64,000 bases of DNA from Dehalococcoidia bacterium (GTDB lineage Bacteria; Chloroflexota; Dehalococcoidia; UBA2979). Below, piece by piece: positions 1 to 12,320 of this stretch. Position numbers and translations under genes: made by a program. The notes beneath the pieces are model-generated. The model was given only the letters and a program-made list of their open reading frames with translations, was not told the DNA's origin and did no database searches. Positions within the stretch are counted from its first letter, which is position 1, and every line of letters starts with the position of its first letter. Where the stretch lies: contig OZ253555.1 of NCBI GenBank assembly GCA_965262725.1, positions 2,304,001 through 2,368,000 of the forward strand, read 5' to 3'.

Positions 1-70
1 ACGCGGGAGCGATCGACGACCGGCATCCCGTCCCCCCGGCCGACGCCGTCGGCGACGGGAGGCGAGACGC

Positions 71-108
71 AAAGAGAGAGGCGCGCCGGCCGATGGCCGA
101 CGCGCCTC
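71..108 (-). terminator. Intrinsic terminator of the small minus-strand transcript
   Basis: 14-bp GC stem on the minus strand, GAGGCGCGTCGGCC-ATC-GGCCGGCGCGCCTC (one G-U pair), followed by TCTCTTT. Confidence 0.7.
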
Positions 109-133
109 GCGTATATCGCACCGGACCCGGGAA

Positions 134-205
134 CTAGCCCGGACGCACCTCCTCAGAGATGCCGGGGAAGCGCCCGCGATCCGGGCGACATTGTCTATCA
201 CTCAT
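134..205 (-). CDS. Putative 23-aa small protein MSDRQCRPDRGRFPGISEEVRPG (may instead be an sRNA)
   Basis: ATG at 205 and TAG at 134-136, preceded by AAAGGAGGTGAT, lying between a sigma70-type promoter and a terminator. Confidence 0.45.
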   Translation of the reverse strand: MSDRQCRPDRGRFPGISEEVRPG

Positions 206-234
206 AAGAGGCATCACCTCCTTTCCTGCCGGCG

Positions 235-263
235 AAGATAGCGGCGCGGTCGGGGGTCGTCAA
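235..263 (-). promoter_or_regulatory. Sigma70-type promoter
   Basis: TTGACG (263-258), 17-bp spacer, TATCTT (240-235). Confidence 0.65.
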
Positions 264-344
264 TCCAACGGCGCAGCGTCGTGCGCATGTGCGGCGGCGC
301 GGCCCCACGGCGGGTCTCGCACCCTCTCCGGGCTTGGCGAGCCG

Positions 345-1718
345 CTACCCGAGCGTCGCCCGCACGGCAGCGTCGAGGGCGCCGACCACCTGGTCCACCT
401 CGTCTCCGTTCACCACGAGCGGGGGCGCGAGGACGATCTCATCGCCGACGAAGCGCGTGATCACGGATCCCTCCTCGCGCATGTGGCGCGCGACCCGTCC
501 GCCGACCCCCTCCGAGGCATCGAAGCGCTCGCCGCTCCCCGCGTCCCGCACGAGCGAGAGCCCGGCGATCAGTCCGAGCTGCCGGATGTTGGCGACGTGG
601 GGGTGCGCCCCGAGCGAGGCGCGTAGCCCCTCGCCCAGGCGCTCGCCCATCGCCCGGCCGTTCTCGACCAGGCGCTCCTCCTCGATGATGCGCAGGTTGC
701 GCAGCGCCACCGCGGCCGCGGTCGGGTGCGCGCTGTTCGTGTAGGCGTGCATGAAGCGCGCGTCCGGCGGGAGGTCGTGGAGCGCCTCCGTGATCGGGCC
801 CGAGAGCACGACCGCCCCCAGCGGCACGTAGCCGGAGGTGATCGCCTTCGCGACGGAGAGGATGTCCGGGACGACGCCCCAGCGCTCGAGTGCGAACCAG
901 TGTCCCGTGCGGCCGAATCCGGTGATCACCTCGTCGGAGACGAGGAGCACCTCGTACCGGTCGCAGATCTCGCGGAGCCGCGGAAAGTAGTCGTCCGAGG
1001 GCGTCCAGACGCCCCCCGCCCCCTTCACGGGCTCGGCGATCACGCAGGCGACAGTGTCGGCGCCGGCGCGCTCGATCGCGGACTCGATCCAGTGCGCGCA
1101 TTCGCCGTCCGCGTTCGGCCGGCAGCCGCACTCCAGGTTCTCGGGGCGGGTCGCACGGATGACGTCGTCAGGGAGCGGCCCGAAGTACTTCCAGAATGCC
1201 GGCAGCCCCGTCATGGCCGAGGTGGCGAGCGTGCCGCCGTGGTAGGCGCGCTCGCGCGCCACCACCTTCACCTTCCCGGAGCGCCCCATGAGGTTCCAGT
1301 AGAAGCGCGCCGTCTTGAAGGCGGCCTCGTTGGATTCAGAGCCGGAGTTGGTGAAGTAGACGCCTTCCATCCCGTCGTAGGCGAGGCCGGCCAGGGTGCG
1401 GGCGAGCTCGATGGCGGGAACGTTGGAGAAGCCCGTGTAGTTGTTCGTGAAGGCCAGCCGGCGCATCTGCTCGGAGGCGGCGTCGGCGAGTTCGGCGCGG
1501 CCGTGGCCGACCGCGACGTTCCAGAGCGAGGAGAGCCCGTCGATGTAGCGGCGGCCGCGCACATCGGTCAGCCAGACGCCCTCGCCGGAGGCGAAGATCA
1601 CCGGATCGGCGTGATCGGGCGCGTAGTACTGCGGGTGCAGCAGGTGACCGAGGTCCTCCTCGACGAGGCGCGCGATCGTCGCCTCGTCCAGCCGCGGGCC
1701 CATCCCCGTCGTGCTCAC
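345..1718 (-). CDS. Class-III PLP-dependent aminotransferase
   Basis: IDGLSSLWNVAVGHG, NSGSESNEAAFK, YHGGT, DEVITGFGRTG and PDILSVAKAITSGY (PLP lysine). Confidence 0.93.
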   Translation of the reverse strand: MSTTGMGPRLDEATIARLVEEDLGHLLHPQYYAPDHADPVIFASGEGVWLTDVRGRRYIDGLSSLWNVAVGHGRAELADAASEQMRRLAFTNNYTGFSNVPAIELARTLAGLAYDGMEGVYFTNSGSESNEAAFKTARFYWNLMGRSGKVKVVARERAYHGGTLATSAMTGLPAFWKYFGPLPDDVIRATRPENLECGCRPNADGECAHWIESAIERAGADTVACVIAEPVKGAGGVWTPSDDYFPRLREICDRYEVLLVSDEVITGFGRTGHWFALERWGVVPDILSVAKAITSGYVPLGAVVLSGPITEALHDLPPDARFMHAYTNSAHPTAAAVALRNLRIIEEERLVENGRAMGERLGEGLRASLGAHPHVANIRQLGLIAGLSLVRDAGSGERFDASEGVGGRVARHMREEGSVITRFVGDEIVLAPPLVVNGDEVDQVVGALDAAVRATLG

Positions 1719-1742
1719 GGCATCCCCCTCCTCAGCCGGCTC

Positions 1743-3302
1743 TCACCGCGCCTGCCTCCGGGCGTGCGAACCGAAGCGTGCGGCGACCAGCTCCCCTGCC
1801 ACCGCGCGCTCGTCCCACGGGTGCGCGCCGTCCGCGCGCTCGATGCTGCGCTCGTGCCCCTTGCCGGCGAGCACCACCGCGTCGCCCGGACGGGCGAGCT
1901 CGAGCGCACGCCCGATCGCCTCCCTGCGGTCCGGGACCCGCTCGAAGCTCCGGCCCTCGACGCCGCCAGCATCACGCATCGCCGATGCCAGCGCCTCCAG
2001 TATCGCGTCGGGCTCCTCCGATCGCGGATCCTCCTCGGTCAGGACCGCGTAGTCGGAGAGCTCGGCGGCGGCCCGGCCCATGCCGGCCCGTCGCTCCGTT
2101 CCGCGCTCGCCGGCACAGCCGAAGACCACGATCAGGCGTCCCGGCACTCGTGCGCGGAGCGTCTTCAGGAGCTGGCGCAGAGCCGCCTCCGTGTGCGCGT
2201 AGTCCACGACCACCTCCACCGGTGAGTCGGCGATGAGCTCCATGCGTCCGGGAACGCCGGGAGAGGCCGCGAGCCCGGCCGCGGCGCGTACGGGATCGAG
2301 GTCGAGTGCGTACGCGACCGCCAGGGCGGCCACGGCGTTCGCGAGGTTGGCCCGGCCGGGAAGCGGCGCGTGCGCCTCAATCGCCGCCGTCCGGGAGCCG
2401 TGCCGTCCGAGCGCCAGGAGAAAGCGCGAGTCGCGCTGCCGCCATTCGACGGATTCGGCCCGGACCGAGGCGCCTGGGATTCCCTCCCCGCCCTCCAGCG
2501 CGTAGCGCAACGCGCGAGCCCGCGTGCTCCGCGCGAGGTAGTCCGCCGCGTCGGGCTCGTCGGCGTTCAGCACCGCCCAACCGTCGGGGGGCAGCATCTC
2601 GAACAGCCTGGCCTTCGCGGCGTGGTAGGCCTCCCGCGTGCCGTGGAAGTCGAGATGGTCGGCGCCGAGCGTGGTGGCGACGCCAACATCGAAGCCGGCC
2701 CCGTCGAGCCGGTGCTGCACGAGCCCGTGCGAGCTCGCCTCGATGACGGCGTGGGTGCAGCCGGCGTCGACCATCTCGGCGAGCAGCCGCTGGACGTCGG
2801 GCGCCTCGGGCGTGGTGAGGCGCGAGAGGGGCAGCCGGACATCGCCGGCGACCCGCGACTCGACCGTCGAGAGGAGTCCGCCCGAGAGCCCCGCCCCCTC
2901 GAGGGCGGCAAGCGAGAAGAATGCCGTCGTCGACTTCCCGTCGGTGCCGGTCACACCGACGACGGTGAGACGGCGCGCGGGATGGCCCTCGTGCGCGGCG
3001 GCGACGGAGGCGAGCGCCGCGCGGCCGTCCGGGACCTCGACAAGCGGGACGCCCGTGGAGCGCAGCGGCTCGCCGCGGCCGCTCTCGGCGACGATCGCGG
3101 CGGCTCCGGCCCGCGCCGACTGCGTGGCGTGGTCGTGCCCGTCCGAACGCCGGCCGCTGAGGCAGACGAAGAGGTCCCCCGGCTCGACCAGTCGAGAATC
3201 ATGGCGAACGGCGCCCACGCGCGGGGGAAGCTCGGAGCCGGCGAGGAGGCGCGCCTCGGGGGGAAGTCCCTCTCGCCAATCGCCGCGCGACTCCGGTGCC
3301 AC
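1743..3302 (-). CDS. murE: UDP-N-acetylmuramoyl-L-alanyl-D-glutamate--diamino acid ligase MurE
   Basis: DSRLVEPGDLF, GVTGTDGKSTT, LTTPEA, IEASSHG, DHLDFH, VVDYAHT, VFGCAGER, EDPR, AGKGHE. Confidence 0.92.
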   Translation of the reverse strand: MAPESRGDWREGLPPEARLLAGSELPPRVGAVRHDSRLVEPGDLFVCLSGRRSDGHDHATQSARAGAAAIVAESGRGEPLRSTGVPLVEVPDGRAALASVAAAHEGHPARRLTVVGVTGTDGKSTTAFFSLAALEGAGLSGGLLSTVESRVAGDVRLPLSRLTTPEAPDVQRLLAEMVDAGCTHAVIEASSHGLVQHRLDGAGFDVGVATTLGADHLDFHGTREAYHAAKARLFEMLPPDGWAVLNADEPDAADYLARSTRARALRYALEGGEGIPGASVRAESVEWRQRDSRFLLALGRHGSRTAAIEAHAPLPGRANLANAVAALAVAYALDLDPVRAAAGLAASPGVPGRMELIADSPVEVVVDYAHTEAALRQLLKTLRARVPGRLIVVFGCAGERGTERRAGMGRAAAELSDYAVLTEEDPRSEEPDAILEALASAMRDAGGVEGRSFERVPDRREAIGRALELARPGDAVVLAGKGHERSIERADGAHPWDERAVAGELVAARFGSHARRQAR

Positions 3303-3415
3303 TCGTTCTCCCGCCCTGTGCGGCCGTCATCGTAGCGGAGGCTTCCCGCTGGGGCTTCGGCGTACACTCGCCGCACGCCCGACGAGGGCGAGCGCGAGCG
3401 GGGGACGGGGGCGCG

Positions 3416-3895
3416 ATGATCCGCCTGACGGACGAGATGCAGAGCGCCGTGAACGACGCCCTCACGGAGGGCGTGCCCATCACGATCGCCGCCGTCGACG
3501 CCGCGGGCCAGCCGAACATCACCTTCCGCGGCAGCACGCAGGCGCTCGACGAGGAGCGGCTTGCCCTCTGGGCACGCAACCCGGAGGGGGGCCTCGTGCG
3601 CTCGATCCAGAGCAACCCGCGCGTCGCGCTGCTCTACCGGCACCCGGCGCGGGGCCTCGCACTGCTCTTCCACGGCCGCGCGCACGTGACCGAGGACGCC
3701 GCACTCGCGGCGGCCATCTACGAGCGATCGCCCGAGCCGGAGCGGGCCCGGGACCCGGAGCGCGGCGGCGTCGCGGTGGTGATCGAACTCGACCGCGTGA
3801 TCCAGCGCGGGGCCGCGATCATGGAGCGCGACCAGGCGGTCGCAGCCTCCCCGCGGCTGCCTGCGGCGCCGGAGAGTGGGACAGGGGACCTGTAA
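3416..3895 (+). CDS. Pyridoxamine 5'-phosphate oxidase-like (FMN/F420 split-barrel) protein
   Basis: Start refined to ATG 3416; IAAVDAAGQPNITFRGS and IQSNPRVALLY split-barrel motifs. Confidence 0.75.
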   Translation: MIRLTDEMQSAVNDALTEGVPITIAAVDAAGQPNITFRGSTQALDEERLALWARNPEGGLVRSIQSNPRVALLYRHPARGLALLFHGRAHVTEDAALAAAIYERSPEPERARDPERGGVAVVIELDRVIQRGAAIMERDQAVAASPRLPAAPESGTGDL

Positions 3896-4283
3896 GCGGG
3901 ATTCTGTCCCGCCCGCCGCCCGAGGGGCGGAAGCGGGGACGGTCATCCATCTAGGACGGCGGTTGCCCGCCGCCTCCAGCAGCCTACCCGGGGGCGGGAC
4001 CGGACCTCCCATCGCCCCCCTATGTGGCCTTGCTCCGGGTGGGGTTTGCCCGGCCGCCCCGTCTCCGGGAACGCCGGTGCGCTCTTACCGCACCATTTCA
4101 CCCTTGCCGCCCCGCCGGGCCCGGGGGCTCCGCGGGGAGGCGGTATGTTTCTGTGGCACTTTCCGTCGGCTCGCGCCGCCCGGCCGTTAGCCGGCACCCT
4201 GTCCGGTGGAGTCCCGACTTTCCTCCCGCGGGGGCGCCCACCACGTGGGGCCGTCCGCTGGCGACCGTCCGGTCCCCTGTCCT
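3879..4283 (-). ncRNA. rnpB: RNase P RNA, bacterial type A
   Basis: GAGGAAAGTCGGGACTCC near the 5' end, AGTGCCACAGAAAC, GGTAAGAGCGCACC, GGCAAACCCCACCCGGAGCAAGGCC, and ACAGAATCCCGCTTA near the 3' end; P1 helix GGACAGGGGAC/GTCCCCTGTCC. Confidence 0.97.
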
Positions 4284-4288
4284 CCCCG

Positions 4289-4297
4289 ATTATCACA
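4289..4297 (-). promoter_or_regulatory. Extended -10 promoter of rnpB
   Basis: TGtGATAAT about 6 nt upstream of the P1 5' strand; overlaps the modC stop codon. Confidence 0.55.
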
Positions 4298-5375
4298 CGG
4301 CCGGGGACTCGTCGGGCTGCATGACCTGGAGGTCGGCGGGCGGGAGCTCGACGACCCAGCGCCGGGTCGAGGCGACCCCGAGCACCTCATACGGGCGCGA
4401 GGCCACCTCCACGAGCACGGCGGGGCCGCGTCCCTCCGGCTCGAGCCTGAGCAGGTGCGCGTTGCCGAAGGCGAGATCCTCCACCACGCCCGCGACGAAG
4501 CAGTTCTGGGGGAGCGCCCCGTCGGGATCGAGGCGGCGCAGGATGCAGCGCTCGGCGCGGACCCCGACGTCGACGCGGACGGCCCCGGCCGGGGGCGGGC
4601 GGTCGGCGGGGAGCGCCAGCGCGAGCCCCCGCACGACGACGCGCCCCCCCTCCACGCGGCCGGCTACGATGTTGCGCACGCCCGTCAGCTCCGCGACGCG
4701 GCGGCCGAGCGGGCGCCGGAAAACCTCGTCACGGCGGTCGAACTGCAGCACGCGGCCCCCGTCGAGAACCGCGATGCGATCGCCGAGCAGGTGCGCCTCG
4801 CGGAGATCGTGCGTCACGAAGAGGATCGGGAGTCCCAGCTCTCGCCGCAGCCGCAGGAGCTCCCCGCGCATCTCCTCGCGCAGCGCCTCGTCGAGAGCCG
4901 AGAACGGCTCGTCGAGCAGGAGCGCCTCTGTGGGACGCACCAGTGCTCGCGCGAGCGCGACGCGCTGGCTCTGGCCGCCCGAGAGCTGGTGCGGTCGCCT
5001 CTCGTCCAGCCCGCCGATGTGGAGCATCGCGCAGAGGCGCGCGTAGCGGGCGTGCGCCTCGCGGGAGCGCTCCACGCCGATCAGGACGTTCCGGCGCACG
5101 TCCAGGTGCGGGAAGAGAGCCGGCTCCTGCACGACGTAGCCGACGCGCCGCCGCTGCGGCGGCAGGTGGAGGCCGGCCGCCGCGTCGACCACGACGCGGC
5201 CCCCGATCTCGATGCGCCCGCGCTCGACCGGTTGCAGCCCGGCGAGGGCGCGCAGCGTCACCGTCTTGCCGGAGCCGGAGGGTCCGTAGAGCACGACCAG
5301 CTCGTCGGCGGCCGCGAGGTCGACTTCGAGGTCGAAGTCGCCCACCCGGGTCCCGAAGGCGGCGGTCAGGGTCAC
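4293..5375 (-). CDS. modC: Molybdate ABC transporter ATP-binding protein
   Basis: GTG start overlapping the modB stop (GTGA); GPSGSGKT, LSGGQSQRVALAR, LLLDEPFSALD, VTHD. Confidence 0.85.
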   Translation of the reverse strand: MTLTAAFGTRVGDFDLEVDLAAADELVVLYGPSGSGKTVTLRALAGLQPVERGRIEIGGRVVVDAAAGLHLPPQRRRVGYVVQEPALFPHLDVRRNVLIGVERSREAHARYARLCAMLHIGGLDERRPHQLSGGQSQRVALARALVRPTEALLLDEPFSALDEALREEMRGELLRLRRELGLPILFVTHDLREAHLLGDRIAVLDGGRVLQFDRRDEVFRRPLGRRVAELTGVRNIVAGRVEGGRVVVRGLALALPADRPPPAGAVRVDVGVRAERCILRRLDPDGALPQNCFVAGVVEDLAFGNAHLLRLEPEGRGPAVLVEVASRPYEVLGVASTRRWVVELPPADLQVMQPDESPAV

Positions 5376-6169
5376 CGGTAGGGCCCTCCTGCCGTCGTCA
5401 CGCGGCTCAGCGCGAGCATGACGGCGAGCGCCAGGGCGACGAGCAGGAGCGAGATCGAGACGGCGCCGGCGAGCCCCGCCGAGGACTCGAAGGCGTTGAG
5501 GATGGCGAGGGGCGCCGTGCGGGTGCTCCCCGGGAGCGATCCGGCGAAGAGCAGCGTCGCCCCGAGTTCCCCGAGCGCGCGCGCCCAGCAGAGCACGGCG
5601 CCGGCCGTGAGCGCCGGCCGCACGAGCGGGAGCGTGACGCTGCGGAAGGTGCGCCATCGCGAGAGCCCGAGCGTGTATGCGACGCCCTCGAAGCGGCGGT
5701 CGGCGCCGCGGAAGCCGGCGTAGGCGGAGCGGACGAAGTAGGGCCCCGCCACGAAGAGCTGCGCCAGCACCACCGCCGCCGTCGTGAACGAGAGCGAGAT
5801 GCCGAGCCCCTCCAGGGGCTCACCTAGGTAGCCGCGCCGGCCGAAGACCGTGAGCAACGCGATGCCGGCGGCGGCCGGCGGTAGCACGATGGGCAGGTCG
5901 ATGAGCGCCGCCGCCAGCCGTGCGCCCCCCCGCCCCGACCGCGCGAGCGCGTACGCGAGCGGCGTCCCCAGGATCGCCGCCAGCAGCGTCGCGAGTGTGG
6001 CCGTCGCGAGCGACAGGCGCAGCGCGCGCCAGCTGTCGGCCGAGCGCAGCTCGGAGGCGACGTCGCCGTCGGTCAGCGCGCGCAGCCCGAGCCCGGCGAC
6101 GGGCAGGAGGAAGAAGAGTGCGAAGAGCGCCGCCGCGGCGAGCCAGCCGTGGCGCGCGATCGCGCTCAT
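5372..6169 (-). CDS. modB: Molybdate ABC transporter permease
   Basis: DLPIVLPPAAAGIALL and WARALGELGATLLFAG; operon context. Confidence 0.88.
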   Translation of the reverse strand: MSAIARHGWLAAAALFALFFLLPVAGLGLRALTDGDVASELRSADSWRALRLSLATATLATLLAAILGTPLAYALARSGRGGARLAAALIDLPIVLPPAAAGIALLTVFGRRGYLGEPLEGLGISLSFTTAAVVLAQLFVAGPYFVRSAYAGFRGADRRFEGVAYTLGLSRWRTFRSVTLPLVRPALTAGAVLCWARALGELGATLLFAGSLPGSTRTAPLAILNAFESSAGLAGAVSISLLLVALALAVMLALSRVTTAGGPYR

Positions 6170-6996
6170 CGTGCCGCCGCCGCCCCGGGCGCTCGGAAGC
6201 CGGCGGCCTCGAGCAGCCGCCAGACGCCCTCGGATGCGAGAAAGTCGGCGAATGCCTTCGCGTCGGCGCCGGCCCCGGCGAGGACGACGGCGACGTACTC
6301 GTTGGCGGGGAGCCCGGCCGGTAGGTCGAGCGCGCGCAGCGCCTCGCCGTCGCGCGCGCTGCCGCGTCGGGCGTCCGTCTCATAGACGAAGGCGGCATCG
6401 GCCTCGCCGGTCTCGACGCGGGAGAGCACGAGCCGCACGCTCGGATCCTCCGTCACGATGTTGGCGCGGATCCGGGCGGCGAGTTCGGCGTCGAGCAGCG
6501 CAAGGGCCGAGCGCGTGAGCGCCCCCACCGGAACGTCGGGCGCCCCCACGGCGACGCGGCGTCCCGGCTCCGCCAGCGCCTCGACCGAGGCGATGGGAGA
6601 TCCCTCCCGCACCACGACGGCGAGCGCGTTGGCCGCGAACCCGAGCGACCGCGTCGCGCCCGCTGCAGCGACGAGGCGCTGGGCCTGGAGCCGGTTGGCA
6701 GAGAGCAGCACGTCGGCGGGCGCTCCCTCCTCGATCTGCGTCGCGAGCAGCTGCGAGCCACCGAAGACGACCGCCACCTCGACCCCCGGCCGCTCGGTCT
6801 CGAAGAGCTCGACCACGCGGGGCAGGACGTCGTCGAGCGACGAGGCGGCGAGGACGCGCAGCGTACGCTCACGCGTGCCGCTCTGGCCCTCGCCGCACGC
6901 GGCGATCAGCGCCGCGAGCACCGCGAGCGCCGCGAGCGCCGCGTGCCAGGAGGCGGACCGCGCGGGGCTCTGAGCCGAACTCTCCGGCACGTGCAT
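6166..6996 (-). CDS. modA: Molybdate ABC transporter substrate-binding lipoprotein
   Basis: Lipobox IAAC; VLAASSL, FGGSQLLATQIEEGAPADV, VPVG, ADAAFVY. Confidence 0.88.
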   Translation of the reverse strand: MHVPESSAQSPARSASWHAALAALAVLAALIAACGEGQSGTRERTLRVLAASSLDDVLPRVVELFETERPGVEVAVVFGGSQLLATQIEEGAPADVLLSANRLQAQRLVAAAGATRSLGFAANALAVVVREGSPIASVEALAEPGRRVAVGAPDVPVGALTRSALALLDAELAARIRANIVTEDPSVRLVLSRVETGEADAAFVYETDARRGSARDGEALRALDLPAGLPANEYVAVVLAGAGADAKAFADFLASEGVWRLLEAAGFRAPGAAAAR

Positions 6997-7103
6997 CCTT
7001 CCCTCCGGCGCACCGCCTTCCGGCGGTGACGATAGCAGCGCGGTCGCGCTGCGGAGCCGCGTGCGGTGCTACGATCGCGCTCCGCCCGGGAGGTCGGTCC
7101 CTG

Positions 7104-7652
7104 GTGATCTTCAATGTTTCCACGCTCCTCGGCGAGCCCGTGGGCGCATCGCGCGATCACGCGCTCGCCGACGCCCCGGCGGAGTCCGCCGCCCGCCCCC
7201 GGCCGATTCGGGGCGCCGCGCGTCTGACGCGGACCACGTCGGGCATCCTCGTCTCGGCGCGTCTCACCCTCGAGACGGATCTGGCGTGCGCGCGCTGCCT
7301 GACCCGATTCCGACGACCCCATGAGATCGCCTTCGACGAGGAGTTCGTGCCCGAGCACGACCCGGCGACCGGCCTGCCGCCGACCGTCGACGACCCGGAC
7401 ACGTTCCGCATCGATGCCCGCCAGCATCTCGACCTCAGCGAGGCGATCCGGCAGTATGAGCAGGCGGCGCTTCCGATCTCCCCGCTCTGCCGCGAGGAGT
7501 GCGCGGGCCTCTGCCCGCGCTGCGGTGCCGACCGCAACGAGAGCCCCTGCGGCTGCTCGGGCGACGACGAGGATCCGCGCTGGGGGCCGCTCGCCGCGAT
7601 CGCCAGCGCGTGGAGGCAGAAGGAGAAGCGGCGTGGCAGTCCCCAAGCGTAA
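7104..7652 (+). CDS. yceD: YceD/DUF177 family metal-binding protein
   Basis: GTG 7104 after GGAGGT; CARCL and LCREECAGLCPRCGADRN; directly upstream of rpmF. Confidence 0.88.
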   Translation: MIFNVSTLLGEPVGASRDHALADAPAESAARPRPIRGAARLTRTTSGILVSARLTLETDLACARCLTRFRRPHEIAFDEEFVPEHDPATGLPPTVDDPDTFRIDARQHLDLSEAIRQYEQAALPISPLCREECAGLCPRCGADRNESPCGCSGDDEDPRWGPLAAIASAWRQKEKRRGSPQA

Positions 7653-7821
7653 GACGCCTCGCGCGAAGCGCAATCACCGCCGCAGCCATCACCGCGTCGC
7701 GGTGCCGCAGCTGGTCGCCTGCACGCAGTGCGGCTCCCAGCACATCAACCACCGCGCCTGCACCGTGTGCGGCAACTACAACGGCCGCCGCGTGCTGGGG
7801 TCCGAGCCGGAGCAGGAGTAG
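7633..7821 (+). CDS. rpmF: 50S ribosomal protein L32 (Zn-ribbon form)
   Basis: MAVPKRKTPRAKRNHRRSH...CTQCG...HRACTVCGNYNGR. Confidence 0.95.
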   Translation: MAVPKRKTPRAKRNHRRSHHRVAVPQLVACTQCGSQHINHRACTVCGNYNGRRVLGSEPEQE

Positions 7822-7923
7822 CGCCGGCCGGGGCCGGGGCGTCGCGCCGGAGGCCAGCGCCTGAGCAGGGGGATGGGGCGGCCGAGCCGTCGGCGTTCCT
7901 CCCCCGTCCCGGAGGTGGCACCC

Positions 7924-8889
7924 ATGCTCCAGGACGCGCTCGGCGAGCTCCCGCGTGATCCCACCGTCGCGTGGCTCTTCCCCGGGCAGGGAGCACAGCA
8001 CGCCGGCATGGGCCGCGACCTCTACGAGGAGAGCAGCTGGGCGCGCGCGATCTTCGACGAGGCGGACGACGCCCTCGGCATCGCGCTCTCCCGCCTCTGC
8101 TTCGACGGTCCGGCAGAGGAGCTGACGCGCACCGTCAACGCACAGCCGGCGCTCGTCGCGCACGGACTCGCGGCGCTCGCAGCCGCCGTCGAGGCGGGGA
8201 GCATCACGGCGCGCCCCGGCCTTCTCGCCGGCCACTCCCTGGGCGAATACGCCGCGCTGGTCGCGGCCGGGGCGCTGTCGGTCGGTGCCGGGCTGCGGCT
8301 CGTCCGCGAGCGCGGCCGGCTGATGCAGGAGGCCTGCGACCGGGAGCCGGGCGCGATGGCGGCGCTCGTCGCGCTCGAACGCGATCGGGTCGAGGCGATC
8401 TGCCTGGCGCACGGCGCCACGATCTGCAACGAGAACGCACCCGGCAACGTCACGATCGGCGGTTCACCCGAAGCGGTCGACGCCGCCTCCGAGCAGGCCC
8501 GCTCGGAGGGCGGACGCGTCTTCCCGCTGGCGGTGGCCGGCGCCTTCCACACGCCCCTGATGGAGAGCGCCGCGGCGGGCATGCGATCGGCGCTCGCGTG
8601 CGTTCGCTTCGCCGACCCCGATCCGCCGGTCGTCTCCAACGTCACCGCCCGGCCGCTTGCGCGCGCGGCCGAGCTTCCGGGGGAGCTCGCGGCGCAGATC
8701 ACAAGCCCCGTGAGGTGGGCCGACTCCGTGCGCGCGCTGGCCGAGTCTGGCGTCTCCCGCCTCATCGAGTTCGGGCCGGGGAAGACGCTCACCGGCGCGG
8801 CGAAGCGCACCGTTCGCGGCATCGACGTCCGGAACGTCGAGAGGGCGGCCGACGCCCGCGCCGGGGCCGATGCCCCGGCCGGCCGATGA
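7924..8889 (+). CDS. fabD: Malonyl-CoA:ACP transacylase
   Basis: FPGQGAQ, GHSLGEY, VAGAFHTPLM; ATG 7924 after GGAGGT. Confidence 0.95.
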   Translation: MLQDALGELPRDPTVAWLFPGQGAQHAGMGRDLYEESSWARAIFDEADDALGIALSRLCFDGPAEELTRTVNAQPALVAHGLAALAAAVEAGSITARPGLLAGHSLGEYAALVAAGALSVGAGLRLVRERGRLMQEACDREPGAMAALVALERDRVEAICLAHGATICNENAPGNVTIGGSPEAVDAASEQARSEGGRVFPLAVAGAFHTPLMESAAAGMRSALACVRFADPDPPVVSNVTARPLARAAELPGELAAQITSPVRWADSVRALAESGVSRLIEFGPGKTLTGAAKRTVRGIDVRNVERAADARAGADAPAGR

Positions 8890-8908
8890 CCCCCGAGAGG
8901 AGGGCGGG

Positions 8909-9667
8909 ATGAGCGCGGAGGGGCCCCTGGCGGGCCGCATGGCGGTGGTGACGGGCGGATCCCGCGGAATCGGGCGGGCGATCGCGCTCGAGCTCGCGAG
9001 GCAGGGCGCCGATGTGCTCATCACCTACCGCACGAACTCGGCGCTCGCCGAGGCCGCGGCGAACGAGATCCGGCGGCTTCGCGTCGAGTGCACGGCGAGC
9101 GAGATGGACGTGCGCGACGACAACTCCGTCAGGCGCGTGTTCGAGGCGGCGCGGGCGCGCCACGGCGAGATCGACGTGCTCGTCAACAACGCCGGCGTGA
9201 CGGTCGACGGCCTGCTGATCCGGATGTCGCGGGACGACTGGGACACGGTCGTGGAGACGAATCTCACCGGTACCTTCCTCGCGACGCGTCTCGCCCTCCG
9301 CGGGATGATGCGCCGCCGCCGCGGCCGCATCATCAACATCACCTCGGTGGTGGGGCAGATCGGCAACGCCGGGCAGGCAAACTACGCGGCCGCGAAGGCG
9401 GGGATCATCGGGTTCACGCACGCCGTCGCGCGCGAGGTCGCCTCCCGCAACGTGACCGTGAACGCCGTCGCGCCCGGGTTCGTCGAGACCGACATGACCT
9501 CCGGGCTCTCCGAGCAGGTGAAGGAGACGATCCTCAAGCAGATCCCGATCGGGCGCTACGCCGACCCCGCCGAGGTGGCGGCCGTCGTCGCCTTCCTCGC
9601 CTCCGACCAAGCGTCTTACATCACCGGCCAGACGTTCAACGTCGACGGCGGACTGGTGATGCAGTAG
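8909..9667 (+). CDS. fabG: 3-oxoacyl-ACP reductase
   Basis: TGGSRGIG, VNNAGVT, GNAGQANYAAAKAG, NAVAPGFVETDMT. Confidence 0.95.
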   Translation: MSAEGPLAGRMAVVTGGSRGIGRAIALELARQGADVLITYRTNSALAEAAANEIRRLRVECTASEMDVRDDNSVRRVFEAARARHGEIDVLVNNAGVTVDGLLIRMSRDDWDTVVETNLTGTFLATRLALRGMMRRRRGRIINITSVVGQIGNAGQANYAAAKAGIIGFTHAVAREVASRNVTVNAVAPGFVETDMTSGLSEQVKETILKQIPIGRYADPAEVAAVVAFLASDQASYITGQTFNVDGGLVMQ

Positions 9668-9679
9668 CGGGAGGCGCTC

Positions 9680-10105
9680 GTGGCCACGCGCTCACGTCGC
9701 CGCTCGCGGATCGCCGCGTTCCAGGCGCTCTTCGAGGCGGATCTCTCGGGGCGCCCCACGGAGCAGGTGCTTGGCAGCGGATTGGCGGGCGCGCGCCTCA
9801 CGGAGGAGGCCACGGCGTTCGCGCGGGCGCTCGTCGTCGGCGTCACGGAGCGGCAGGACGAGATCGACGCCGTGATCACCGAGCACGCCCCGGCCTTCCC
9901 GCTCTCGGAGATGGCGCCGGTGGATCGCAGTGTGCTGCGCCTTGCTATCTATGAAGTGCTCTTTGATAATCGCCACGCTCCGCTCCGGGTCGCGATCAAC
10001 GAGGCCGTCGAGATCGCAAAGGGGTACGGGTCGGAATCCTCCGGCCGCTTCGTGAACGGAGTGCTTGGATCCGTCGCCCTGCAGGCGGCGGGCGAAACGC
10101 AATAG
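9680..10105 (+). CDS. nusB: Transcription antitermination factor NusB
   Basis: RRRSRIAAFQALF, VDRSVLRLAIYE, INEAVEIAKGYG, FVNGVLG. Confidence 0.95.
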   Translation: MATRSRRRSRIAAFQALFEADLSGRPTEQVLGSGLAGARLTEEATAFARALVVGVTERQDEIDAVITEHAPAFPLSEMAPVDRSVLRLAIYEVLFDNRHAPLRVAINEAVEIAKGYGSESSGRFVNGVLGSVALQAAGETQ

Positions 10106-10126
10106 GCACGGAGAGGGACTTGACTC

Positions 10127-10387
10127 GTGGCAACCGTTTTTGAACGTGTGCGCCTGCTCATCGTCGAGCAGCTGGGGGTGGAGGAGTCTCAGGTTGCGTC
10201 GAACGCTTCGTTCGTCGACGACCTGAACGCCGACTCGCTCGATCTGGTGGAGCTCATCATGTCGATCGAGGAGGAGTTCGGCGGCGACGACGCCAGCCTC
10301 GAGATCTCCGACGAGGATGCCGAGAAGATCCAGACCGTGCAGGACGCGGTCGACTACCTGCACGATCAAGGCGTCGAGGACGAGTAG
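10127..10387 (+). CDS. acpP: Acyl carrier protein
   Basis: [14 protein letters not shown] phosphopantetheine motif. Confidence 0.96.
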
Positions 10388-10393
10388 CACGCG

Positions 10394-10427
10394 CCCGCGG
10401 CCGCCGCCGCGCGCGGGCGGCCGCGGG
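10394..10427 (+). terminator. GC-rich hairpin downstream of acpP
   Basis: CCCGCGGCCGCC...GGCGGCCGCGGG 12-bp stem; no clear U-tract. Confidence 0.4.
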
Positions 10428-10460
10428 AACGGGCCGGCCCCCGCGGCGTATCATCGCTGA

Positions 10461-10811
10461 ATGGAACTCTTCGGCGTCGGCGCCATGGAGGCGCTGCTCG
10501 TCCTCGTCGTCGCGCTGATCGTCGTCGGACCGCGCCGCTTCCCCGAGATCGCGCGTCAGGGCGGGCGCTGGTACCGCGTCGCTCGCCGCTACGCGAGCGA
10601 GGTCACGCGGGACGTGCGCGGCGCCATGGAAGAGCTCAAGAGCGAGATCGAGGAGGAGAGCGAGGATCTGCGCTCGATCCGCGATCTCGGGGACGAGGTC
10701 GAGGCGGACCTCCGCGCGAGCACGCCTCCACTGGAGGACGCCGGGCCGGCGACAGGCCGAGCGGGCGGCGACGCCGCGCGGGCGCCTGATGAGGGCGGCT
10801 CCACTCGGTGA
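10461..10811 (+). CDS. tatB: Twin-arginine translocase TatA/TatB family subunit (TatB-like)
   Basis: FGVGAMEALLVLVVALIVVGPRRFPE plus amphipathic helix; overlaps tatC. Confidence 0.8.
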   Translation: MELFGVGAMEALLVLVVALIVVGPRRFPEIARQGGRWYRVARRYASEVTRDVRGAMEELKSEIEEESEDLRSIRDLGDEVEADLRASTPPLEDAGPATGRAGGDAARAPDEGGSTR

Positions 10812-11560
10812 CGACCGCGGATCAGGAGGAGCTGGCCGACGGCGGCAGCATGACGCTGCTGGAGCACCTCTCCGAGCTCCGGTCGCGCGTCACCTGGATG
10901 GCCGCGGCCGTCGCCGCCGGCTCCTTCGTCTTCTTCCTCCCGCCTATAGGCTTCCGGCTGATCGAGGTGCTCCTCGAGCCAGCGCGCGTCGCCATCGACG
11001 ACCCCACCTGGCGCCCGCAGTTCGTCGAACCGCTCGAGCTGATCGTCACGTTCTTTCAGGTCGGCCTGCTCGGCGGCGTCTCGGTCGCGATGCCCGTCCT
11101 CGTCTACCACGTGCTGCGCTTCGTGAGCCCCGCGCTCACCCGCAGCGAGCGCGTCTGGACACTGCCGATCGCCATCGGCGCTTCGATCTCGTTCCTGATC
11201 GGCCTCGCCTTCTGCTACTGGGTGGTGCTCCCGCTCACGCTCACCTTCCTCCTCACGTTCGGCGACGAGGTCGCGCAGGCCGACCTGCGGATCGGCAACT
11301 ACATCAACTTCGTCACGCGCCTGCTGCTCGTGCTCGGCCTCGTCTTCGAGACGCCGCTCGTGGTGATGGGTCTGGCGAAACTGCGCGTCGTCAGCGCCGG
11401 TCAGCTGCTCCGGCGCTGGCGCATCGCGGTGGTCGGCTCATTCCTCGTCTCGGCGATCGTGACGCCGACCATCGATCCGGTCACGCAGTCCCTGGTCGCG
11501 GGCCCGATGGTCCTTCTCTACTTCGTTGGTATCGGCCTCGCCTGGGTGGTGCGCCGCTGA
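10808..11560 (+). CDS. tatC: Twin-arginine translocase subunit TatC
   Basis: MTLLEHLSELRSR, FVSPAL, GLVFETP, AIVTPTIDPVTQ. Confidence 0.95.
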   Translation: MTTADQEELADGGSMTLLEHLSELRSRVTWMAAAVAAGSFVFFLPPIGFRLIEVLLEPARVAIDDPTWRPQFVEPLELIVTFFQVGLLGGVSVAMPVLVYHVLRFVSPALTRSERVWTLPIAIGASISFLIGLAFCYWVVLPLTLTFLLTFGDEVAQADLRIGNYINFVTRLLLVLGLVFETPLVVMGLAKLRVVSAGQLLRRWRIAVVGSFLVSAIVTPTIDPVTQSLVAGPMVLLYFVGIGLAWVVRR

Positions 11561-11660
11561 GCCCGGCGATTCTGCTCAGACGCCTACGCGGTTGATTGCC
11601 CGCTGAGGGGCGTCGCGGTAGCATGGCGACGGGGCACCCTCCCCGCGAGCCGAGGACTCC

Positions 11661-12320
11661 ATGGCCCTCCGCGAGTTGACCGTGCTCTACGAGGAGATCG
11701 CCGATTGCCCCAACTGCGCGCTCGCCCGGACACGAACGCAGACCGTACCGGGCACCGGGCCGGCGCCTGCGGACGTGATGTGCATCGGGGAGGCGCCCGG
11801 CGCGCGCGAGGACGAACTCGGCCAGCCCTTCGTCGGCCCGGCCGGTCGCTTCCTCGACGAGCTCCTCGGCGCCGCCGGCCTCACGCGGGAGAGTGTCTAC
11901 ATCGCCAACGTCGTGAAGTGCCGCCCGCCCGGAAACCGCGACCCCCAGCCGGAGGAGATCGCGGCCTGCCGCGGCTACCTGGAGCGGCAGATCACGCTCG
12001 TCGACCCGAAGGTGATCGTCACCCTCGGCCGCTTCTCGATGGCGGCCTGGTTCCCGGGCGAGAGTATCGGCCGTATCCACGGCCGGGCGCGACGCGTCGA
12101 CGGCCGGCTCGTCATCCCGATGTACCACCCCGCGGCGGCGCTTCACCGCGGCGACCTGCGCCCGGCGATCGTCGCCGACTTCCAGAAGCTCCCCGCCCTG
12201 ATCGCCTCCGCCTCGGGCGAGGGCCCGCCCGCGGAGAGCGCCGGAGAGCCCGAGCCGGGCGCGGCGCGAGCGGAGGAGGCAGTGCCGGCGCCTCCTCCTC
12301 CCCAGGCCCCCCTCCTGTGA
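11661..12320 (+). CDS. Uracil-DNA glycosylase, family 4 (Fe-S)
   Basis: [37 protein letters not shown]. Confidence 0.93.

Follow-up and report, generated by a model that had tools for sequence, protein, structure and literature searches.

The window, that is, the whole stretch of 64,000 nucleotides analysed here, derives from a Dehalococcoidia bacterium of the Chloroflexota. Near its beginning, a short unit on the minus strand is flanked by an aminotransferase class III gene (345-1718) on one side and by birA, just outside the window, on the other. The promoter, Shine-Dalgarno sequence (SD), small open reading frame (ORF) and terminator hairpin listed in a preliminary description were all found in place (Table 1). 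The transcription start, formerly put near 228, is still a prediction, and the spacing from the promoter suits 227-229. Promoter and terminator are each the sole one in positions 1-1200 (0.0 and 0.2 respectively in shuffled sequences). The 163-nt RNA folds with a z-score of -5.5 against shuffles, and of -4.5 without the terminator. At the level of sequence, the proposal that this is a genuine transcription unit of its own, able to engage ribosomes, is supported. No significant Rfam match was found in positions 1-3000, and in positions 1-12000 only an RNase P class A RNA (3877-4280, minus strand, 249 bits) reached gathering level.

Table 1. Features of the minus-strand unit, in window coordinates
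Feature	Position	Strand	Basis
-35 hexamer TTGACG	258..263	minus	promoter scan
-10 hexamer TATCTT	235..240	minus	17 bp from -35
Predicted transcript, about 160 nt, single copy	70..228	minus	scan, copy search, fold
SD1, extended Shine-Dalgarno (AAAGGAGGTGAT = 224-213)	213..225	minus	13-nt complement of own 16S 3' region
Local 7-bp hairpin, SD1 paired with spacer	206..222	minus	predicted fold
23-codon ORF, ATG 205, TAG 136-134	134..205	minus	frame and length class conserved
Codons 2-6 AGT GAT AGA CAA TGT, rare or U-ending	188..202	minus	family bias; genome codon use
P1 5' arm, begins +15 from AUG	172..191	minus	predicted fold
Internal anti-SD element GGCATCTCT	155..163	minus	fold and covariation
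SD2 GGAGGTG, 11 nt ahead of stop	146..152	minus	family comparison
C directly 5' of TAG stop	134..137	minus	family comparison
P1 3' arm, past stop	113..133	minus	cognate versus swapped duplexes
Intrinsic terminator, 14-bp stem (hairpin 108-78) and weak U tail TCTCTTT	71..108	minus	scan

SD1 had been described as a 12-nt complement of the 16S rRNA 3' end; the match is real, and its length is actually 13 nt. The 13-mer occurs twice in the 3.67-Mb genome, here and in the antisense of the 16S rRNA 3' end. Its 9-nt core AAAGGAGGT is likewise found only here and antisense to the 16S gene, and the Markov expectation for the SD 12-mer is about 0.1 in the genome. SD1 was also said to be stronger than the ribosome binding sites of the neighbouring genes, and it is even the strongest perfect match genome-wide. 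It is near-invariant in alignment A2. In the window copy, SD1 is predicted to be closed by a genus-specific local hairpin, in which no compensatory change was seen.

The unit is carried by all four genomes of the same genus that were compared, at 83-88% identity. A profile (R1) was built from 30 loci from sequence only, because RNAalifold gave no consensus pair on the 30-sequence MAFFT alignment, in which stems were misregistered between families; R1 is not blind to SD2. For the same reason, covariation was tested by comparing cognate with swapped duplexes. R1 matched in 50 of 150 genomes of the class and 33 of 150 genomes of the phylum, almost always in single copy; these tallies were made with strict filters, both include the genome of the window, and their weakest matches were partly inspected. 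From 96 loci examined, 76 members were left after removal of duplicates and of three loci without SD1. An ORF of 14-24 codons is present in 75 of the 76, with ATG (48), TTG (14) or GTG (13) as start codon and all three stops in use. The remaining member, L103, has lost its stop and reads through for 92 codons, as a natural variant or an assembly error. The same two explanations apply to L169, with an early stop ahead of SD2, which was dropped.

The order of elements is constant: promoter, SD1, ORF, a long stem beginning around +12 to +17, and terminator. A TTG-N3-N16..18-TAnnnT promoter lies upstream in 57 of 85 Chloroflexota members vs 0 of 300 control windows, and in 46 of these 57 the -10 ends 12-14 nt ahead of GGAGG. 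A terminator stem of 10 bp or more follows in 81 of 85, and compensatory pairs occur in it. Directly downstream, on the same strand, birA was found at 25 of 36 Chloroflexota loci, the window's own genome included. Records titled Tepidiforma and Dehalococcoidia/Chloroflexota carry the same subtypes as the class of the window. Blastn against plasmids gave no match to the unit, a pattern search of Escherichia coli K-12 gave none either, and the five matches of the Chloroflexota-type pattern in viral contigs included no family member. On this comparison the unit is a conserved, single-copy gene, and its SD, ORF and hairpin arrangement is kept phylum-wide in the Chloroflexota.

Within the ORF, a second SD (SD2) was found in 67 of 75 members, 11 nt ahead of the stop in 48 and 8 nt ahead in 12; it is absent or degenerate in the other 8. 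SD2 stands 8 or 5 nt ahead of the last sense codon, the same distances that separate an initiation SD from the P-site codon. Glu within SD2 is encoded by GAG in 50 cases and by GAA in none; in 14 further cases GGG (Gly) stands in its place, which keeps the pairing. Counted over 15 collapsed lineages, the exclusive use of GAG has modest support (P about 0.01). The base directly ahead of the stop is C in 64 of 75 members vs 961 of 2282 (42%) ordinary long ORFs of the window's own genome. Codons 2-5 end in T in 67% of cases (54 dereplicated lineages) vs 8% in 716 ordinary genes of the own genome. At codon positions 1 and 2 the T share is 19% and 6% respectively. AGT is used 47 times and AGC 5 times, TGT 12 times and TGC never, and the early AGT is in frame in 53 of 53 cases. 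Simple AU-richness accounts poorly for this bias, because it is frame-specific. The U-ending codons concerned are read by G34:U wobble. Among its tRNA genes, the own genome includes tRNA-Arg(GCG) but none with an ACG anticodon was found, so CGU is also wobble-read; a tRNA-Sec and several tRNA-Ser(TGA) calls, all of one length and possibly repeats, were noted too. As far as comparison can tell, start, frame and stop are under selection and the ORF is therefore probably translated.

The peptide itself drifts. In each of five groups, the first, second and third codon positions hold similar numbers of variable sites (e.g. 3/4/3, 7/9/8 and 11/13/11), whereas neighbouring genes show a third-position excess. 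The pN/pS of the small ORF is 0.61-0.83 in five groups, to be read against weak neighbouring-gene controls (0.38-0.76), and its synonymous sites vary less than those of the neighbouring gene. Family peptides have a median GRAVY of -0.27, with values above 0.5 in 14 of 157. An exact look-up of the window peptide in a protein collection gave no match. The comparison indicates that codon identity, SD2 and RNA helices are conserved and that the amino-acid sequence is not.

Two helices were examined across lineages. The P1 arms form a duplex of -25.9 kcal/mol when cognate vs -15.1 kcal/mol when swapped (29 lineages), and in 23 of these 29 lineages P1 has its first pair between +12 and +17, in a search that began at +10. 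At +15 from the AUG, the 5' arm of the window copy would lie close to the front of an initiating ribosome. The reading of P1 against the ribosome edge also used the 16-nt protection reported in the legend of Fig. S2 of PMC10117765. The inner helices differ between lineages. The second helix involves an anti-SD element just 5' of SD2, which is complementary to SD1 together with its lineage-specific spacer and pairs with SD2 in the predicted full-length fold of the window copy. Comparison of cognate with swapped SD1:anti-SD duplexes gave z -6.2 in 33 Chloroflexota lineages and z -3.2 in 14 alphaproteobacterial lineages. Four control regions were near null, one of them, the reversed element in Chloroflexota, being marginal (p 0.0496). 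In one family, RNAalifold returned the SD1:anti-SD helix as consensus, though its pairs are invariant there.

From the folding model, closure of SD1 by the anti-SD element is predicted in two situations, in the nascent RNA and when the stop codon is occupied by a ribosome. Among the 29 lineages modelled, spacer and element pair in 27 when the RNA is nascent, in 24 when the stop is occupied, and in 8 when the full-length RNA is free. The window copy is exceptional, since its SD1 would be closed, also co-transcriptionally, by the local hairpin rather than by the element; its spacer:element probability is 0.03 when nascent and 0.09 with a ribosome on the stop (range 0.0-0.09), and the model gives no switch for it.

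The same layout is, by sequence comparison, present beyond the Chloroflexota, in Alphaproteobacteria (CC2171) and in genomes of Actinomycetota, Acidobacteriota and Myxococcota type. A frame-blind pattern, in which SD1, SD2 and the C-stop were fixed and the reading frame was free, matched at least 120 stretches. In 76 of the 80 matches listed, many of them related Roseobacter-type records, the pattern's stop is also that of an ORF beginning immediately 3' of SD1. By title, the matches listed belong mostly to Alphaproteobacteria and Chloroflexota, with one or a few each from Acidimicrobiia, Bradymonadia/Myxococcales, Bryobacterales, Entotheonella and Saccharimonadia and none titled Bacillota. 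A looser pattern, which matches in controls as well, picked out 53 of 151 Actinomycetota genomes, and about 24 published genomes hold true members by eye, some with TTG, CTG or ATA-type starts. Four genomes flagged as unpublished (G260, G459, G506 and G578) enter this tally and one other, and no further claim. The strict pattern matched in 4 of 101 genomes of Alphaproteobacteria, in 8 of 61 of Acidobacteriota, where inspection by eye left 4 clear members, and in 2 of 81 of Patescibacteria, where the seed genome alone is plausible. Either the distribution is patchy or the strict pattern is too strict. L161 (titled Parcubacteria) and L170 (titled Luminiphilus) are alphaproteobacterial-type copies from genomes that look mislabelled or misbinned, and were dropped, as were three Bacteroidota background matches. 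The CC2171-type pattern gave seven matches in viral contigs.

The Rfam family CC2171 (RF01867) is alphaproteobacterial, whereas the window copy is chloroflexotal. With its model, the window locus is the best match of the genome (14.1 bits, E 1.84). The gathering score of 75 bits is reached neither by this copy nor by its relatives (19.8-28.7 bits); Caulobacter and Rhizobium loci exceed it (120 and 92 bits respectively). Conversely, a Chloroflexota-only profile recovered 7 of 16 non-Chloroflexota loci (best E 1.2e-5). Both RNAs have an extended 5' SD followed by a start codon, an ORF of 14-25 codons, SD2 8 or 11 nt ahead of a C-stop, a long stem across the stop that closes over the body, a 3' terminator hairpin, U-ending early codons and a covarying anti-SD element. 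They differ in that the body sequence cannot be aligned, spacer and peptide are different, and the birA neighbourhood is specific to Chloroflexota. The cross-score is probably largely due to SD1, so that common ancestry, to judge from sequence comparison, is likely but not proven. The window RNA would best be filed as a new, distant variant of CC2171 outside formal Rfam membership. In a control genome, Thermus thermophilus, the CC2171 model matches at E 0.01 or less, a possible family member in a ribosome model organism.

The Caulobacter RNA has been published as abundant and translated. Dataset S1 of PMC4117421 lists CCNA_R0051 with a mapped transcription start and an RPKM of 902-1479, and this RNA contains the new ORF CCNA_03965. 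Ribosome profiling in the same source gives CCNA_03965 an RPKM of 2049 in minimal vs 0 in rich medium at similar RNA levels; the zero, a single table value from chloramphenicol-arrested cells, could be technical. According to the legend of Fig. S11, a YFP fusion to CCNA_03965 gave a band; therefore ribosomes finish the Caulobacter ORF and the peptide exists. The 87-nt length of CCNA_03965 agrees with a start at a CTG that lies six codons ahead of the GTG predicted in a related Caulobacter and shares its frame. The legend of Fig. S4 names AGU as the only strongly paused codon, with the pause gone in rich medium; the ORF of the related Caulobacter contains UCU, CAU and UGU, and AGU is absent. 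CC2171 has also been seen on a Northern blot in Methylorubrum (10.1101/2022.01.24.477521), and the Caulobacter RNA is listed as G1-enriched (PMC5988900). No function is given for CC2171 in the accessible portions of the literature found.

Nothing on the family appeared in the available text of PMC11701678, PMC2864571, PMC10117765, PMC5521070, PMC11109978, PMC5082802, PMC13009471 or 10.64898/2026.10.21.760802. The Rhodopirellula-1 motif, from the supplement of PMC2864571, is a different motif without an SD, and S. meliloti SEP1, as far as it is described in the text seen of PMC10117765, is acidic, unlike the rhizobial members. The Chloroflexota RNA, SD2, the codon bias and the switch were undescribed in the open literature searched; a description may exist in the original CC2171 paper, in subscription journals, or in supplements of motif-discovery papers and preprints. 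SD2, the U-ending early codons and the covarying anti-SD element are new here.

Several known systems share part of this design. E. coli ribosomes pause or abort at codons 3-5, the same part of the reading frame as the family's selected codons; that effect, in the sections of PMC6920384 available, concerns amino-acid and nucleotide motifs of ordinary genes, as opposed to U-ending codons in a dedicated RNA. The presence of CCNA_03965 product also touches the reading in which the peptide is bioactive with loose sequence needs, the RNA switch merely gating its synthesis. The type I toxin mRNAs hok, aapA1 and timP have metastable anti-SD hairpins that gate toxin synthesis, and the family resembles them in a strong SD predicted to be closed when nascent and opened by 3' refolding. 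The difference is that the family has no hydrophobic conserved peptide and a single chromosomal copy. The preliminary description had already set the peptide apart from type I toxins; this holds, as the GRAVY of the window peptide is -1.38. A consensus scan at the locus found no plus-strand promoter or terminator for an antisense RNA. A gated micropeptide would have a small polar N-terminus rich in Ser, Asp, His and Cys and a C-terminal EVxxx. Its frame, start and stop are all conserved, most members have EV in frame, the data cited show translation of the Caulobacter ORF, and the avoidance of T at the second position of codons 2-5 could reflect selection for amino-acid class. Against a selected peptide stand variation without third-position excess, replacement of Glu by Gly where the synonymous GAA never occurs, SD2 outside the EV frame in 4 of 67 members, lengths from 14 to 25 codons, the lack of hydrophobicity and a synonymous preference of U over C for which a peptide gives no account. 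We regard this reading as rather doubtful.

A trans-acting role, in which the CU-rich anti-SD element would bind the SDs of target mRNAs and translation of the ORF would merely expose the element or protect the RNA, as in dual-function sRNAs, appears unlikely. It suits an RNA that is present once, is bounded by a promoter and a terminator of its own, has variable neighbours outside the Chloroflexota and contains an element complementary to generic SDs, and the Caulobacter RNA rises 4.4-fold after mitomycin C, a non-specific response (PMC6237742, Table 1). However, the element covaries with the spacer of the RNA's own SD1, which points to intramolecular pairing, and it is buried in stems of the modelled free RNA. 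Leader-peptide attenuators such as trpL and hisL likewise combine a short ORF, selected codons overlapping alternative helices and a terminator; the family differs in having no run of a single amino acid, no antiterminator in the folding model and, at the loci tested, a downstream gene that varies between phyla. An attenuator of birA, with the early codons as sensors of amino-acid supply, would fit those loci where birA follows directly on the same strand. In an equilibrium folding model, though, the terminator stays formed (P at least 0.88) at all four ribosome positions in 29 lineages, birA is absent from 11 of 36 Chloroflexota and all 12 other-phylum loci, and the neighbour is often convergent, which leaves this explanation very improbable. 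The probability of chance motifs, or of an antisense 16S fragment, is negligible: SD1 is identical to the reverse complement of the 16S end, but the likeness ends after 13 nt, and the idea is already refuted by conservation of the unit across the phylum with covarying stems.

The choice between a micropeptide and an sRNA, as originally posed, was too simple, because the frame is probably translated while the amino-acid sequence drifts. The label of a highly expressed peptide is doubtful, since SD1 is predicted to be partly sequestered. The idea of an sRNA that binds 30S subunits was the closer of the two, by way of real translation and not as a passive SD decoy. The reading we favour, in a judgement evenly balanced for and against, is a translated switch RNA for ribosome handling, in which passage of the ribosome is selected and the peptide is not, and whose output we infer. 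It would build on features that comparison supports, namely the unit, its translated frame, the selected codons, the SD2 geometry and two covarying helices. SD1 would capture a ribosome very tightly. U-ending wobble codons 2-5, together with P1 at the mRNA entry site, would then delay the first elongation steps, whose rate would thereby depend on the supply of aminoacyl-tRNA. SD2, 5 or 8 nt before the P-site codon, would re-anchor the terminating ribosome. Unwinding would release the anti-SD element to pair back onto SD1, so that the RNA is predicted to reopen only once the ribosome has gone. The net effect would be one ribosome at a time and an RNA occupancy that follows the rate of translation. 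Most likely, the RNA would hold ribosomes or report slow translation under nutrient limitation, which is the weakest link of the scheme. Against this reading, the Caulobacter RNA levels of about 900-1500 RPKM in the tables of PMC4117421 may be too low for bulk ribosome storage.

A bolder extension, which we offer as tentative and consider rather unlikely, is a multi-phylum RNA that parks ribosomes as a mimic mRNA, with CC2171 as its alphaproteobacterial branch. Such an RNA would be for the ribosome the counterpart of what 6S RNA is for RNA polymerase. Whenever elongation or recycling slows down, two anti-SD contacts would retain one ribosome and its 16S 3' end would be shielded; translation would release the ribosome once aminoacyl-tRNA supply recovers. 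An uncharacterised Caulobacter sRNA becomes a family with members in several phyla and gains a testable design, in which two SDs are combined with selected wobble codons and a switch based on the covarying anti-SD element. If U-ending codons after the start and an SD in initiation register to the stop are indeed selected, this would be a natural example of an RNA that controls how long a ribosome dwells on it. The design can be tested in C. crescentus, for which the locus, the transcription start and a YFP fusion strain are published.

A few related arrangements were noted in passing. The Acidobacteriota genome G455 contains two family paralogues (L262 and L267). In G604, a variant with SD1, SD2 and TAG (L290) is present in seven copies, mostly near contig ends and with no clear start codon, and is possibly part of a mobile repeat. 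Deep Actinomycetota (L278, L279, L280 and L281) carry SD-short ORF-SD-ATGA leaders in up to four copies per genome; these are natural bicistronic coupling leaders, separate from the double-SD family. Lastly, a 27-codon ORF with two His codons lies outside the window (L001, 10947-11030, minus strand), between birA and histidine-biosynthesis genes, and may be a leader.
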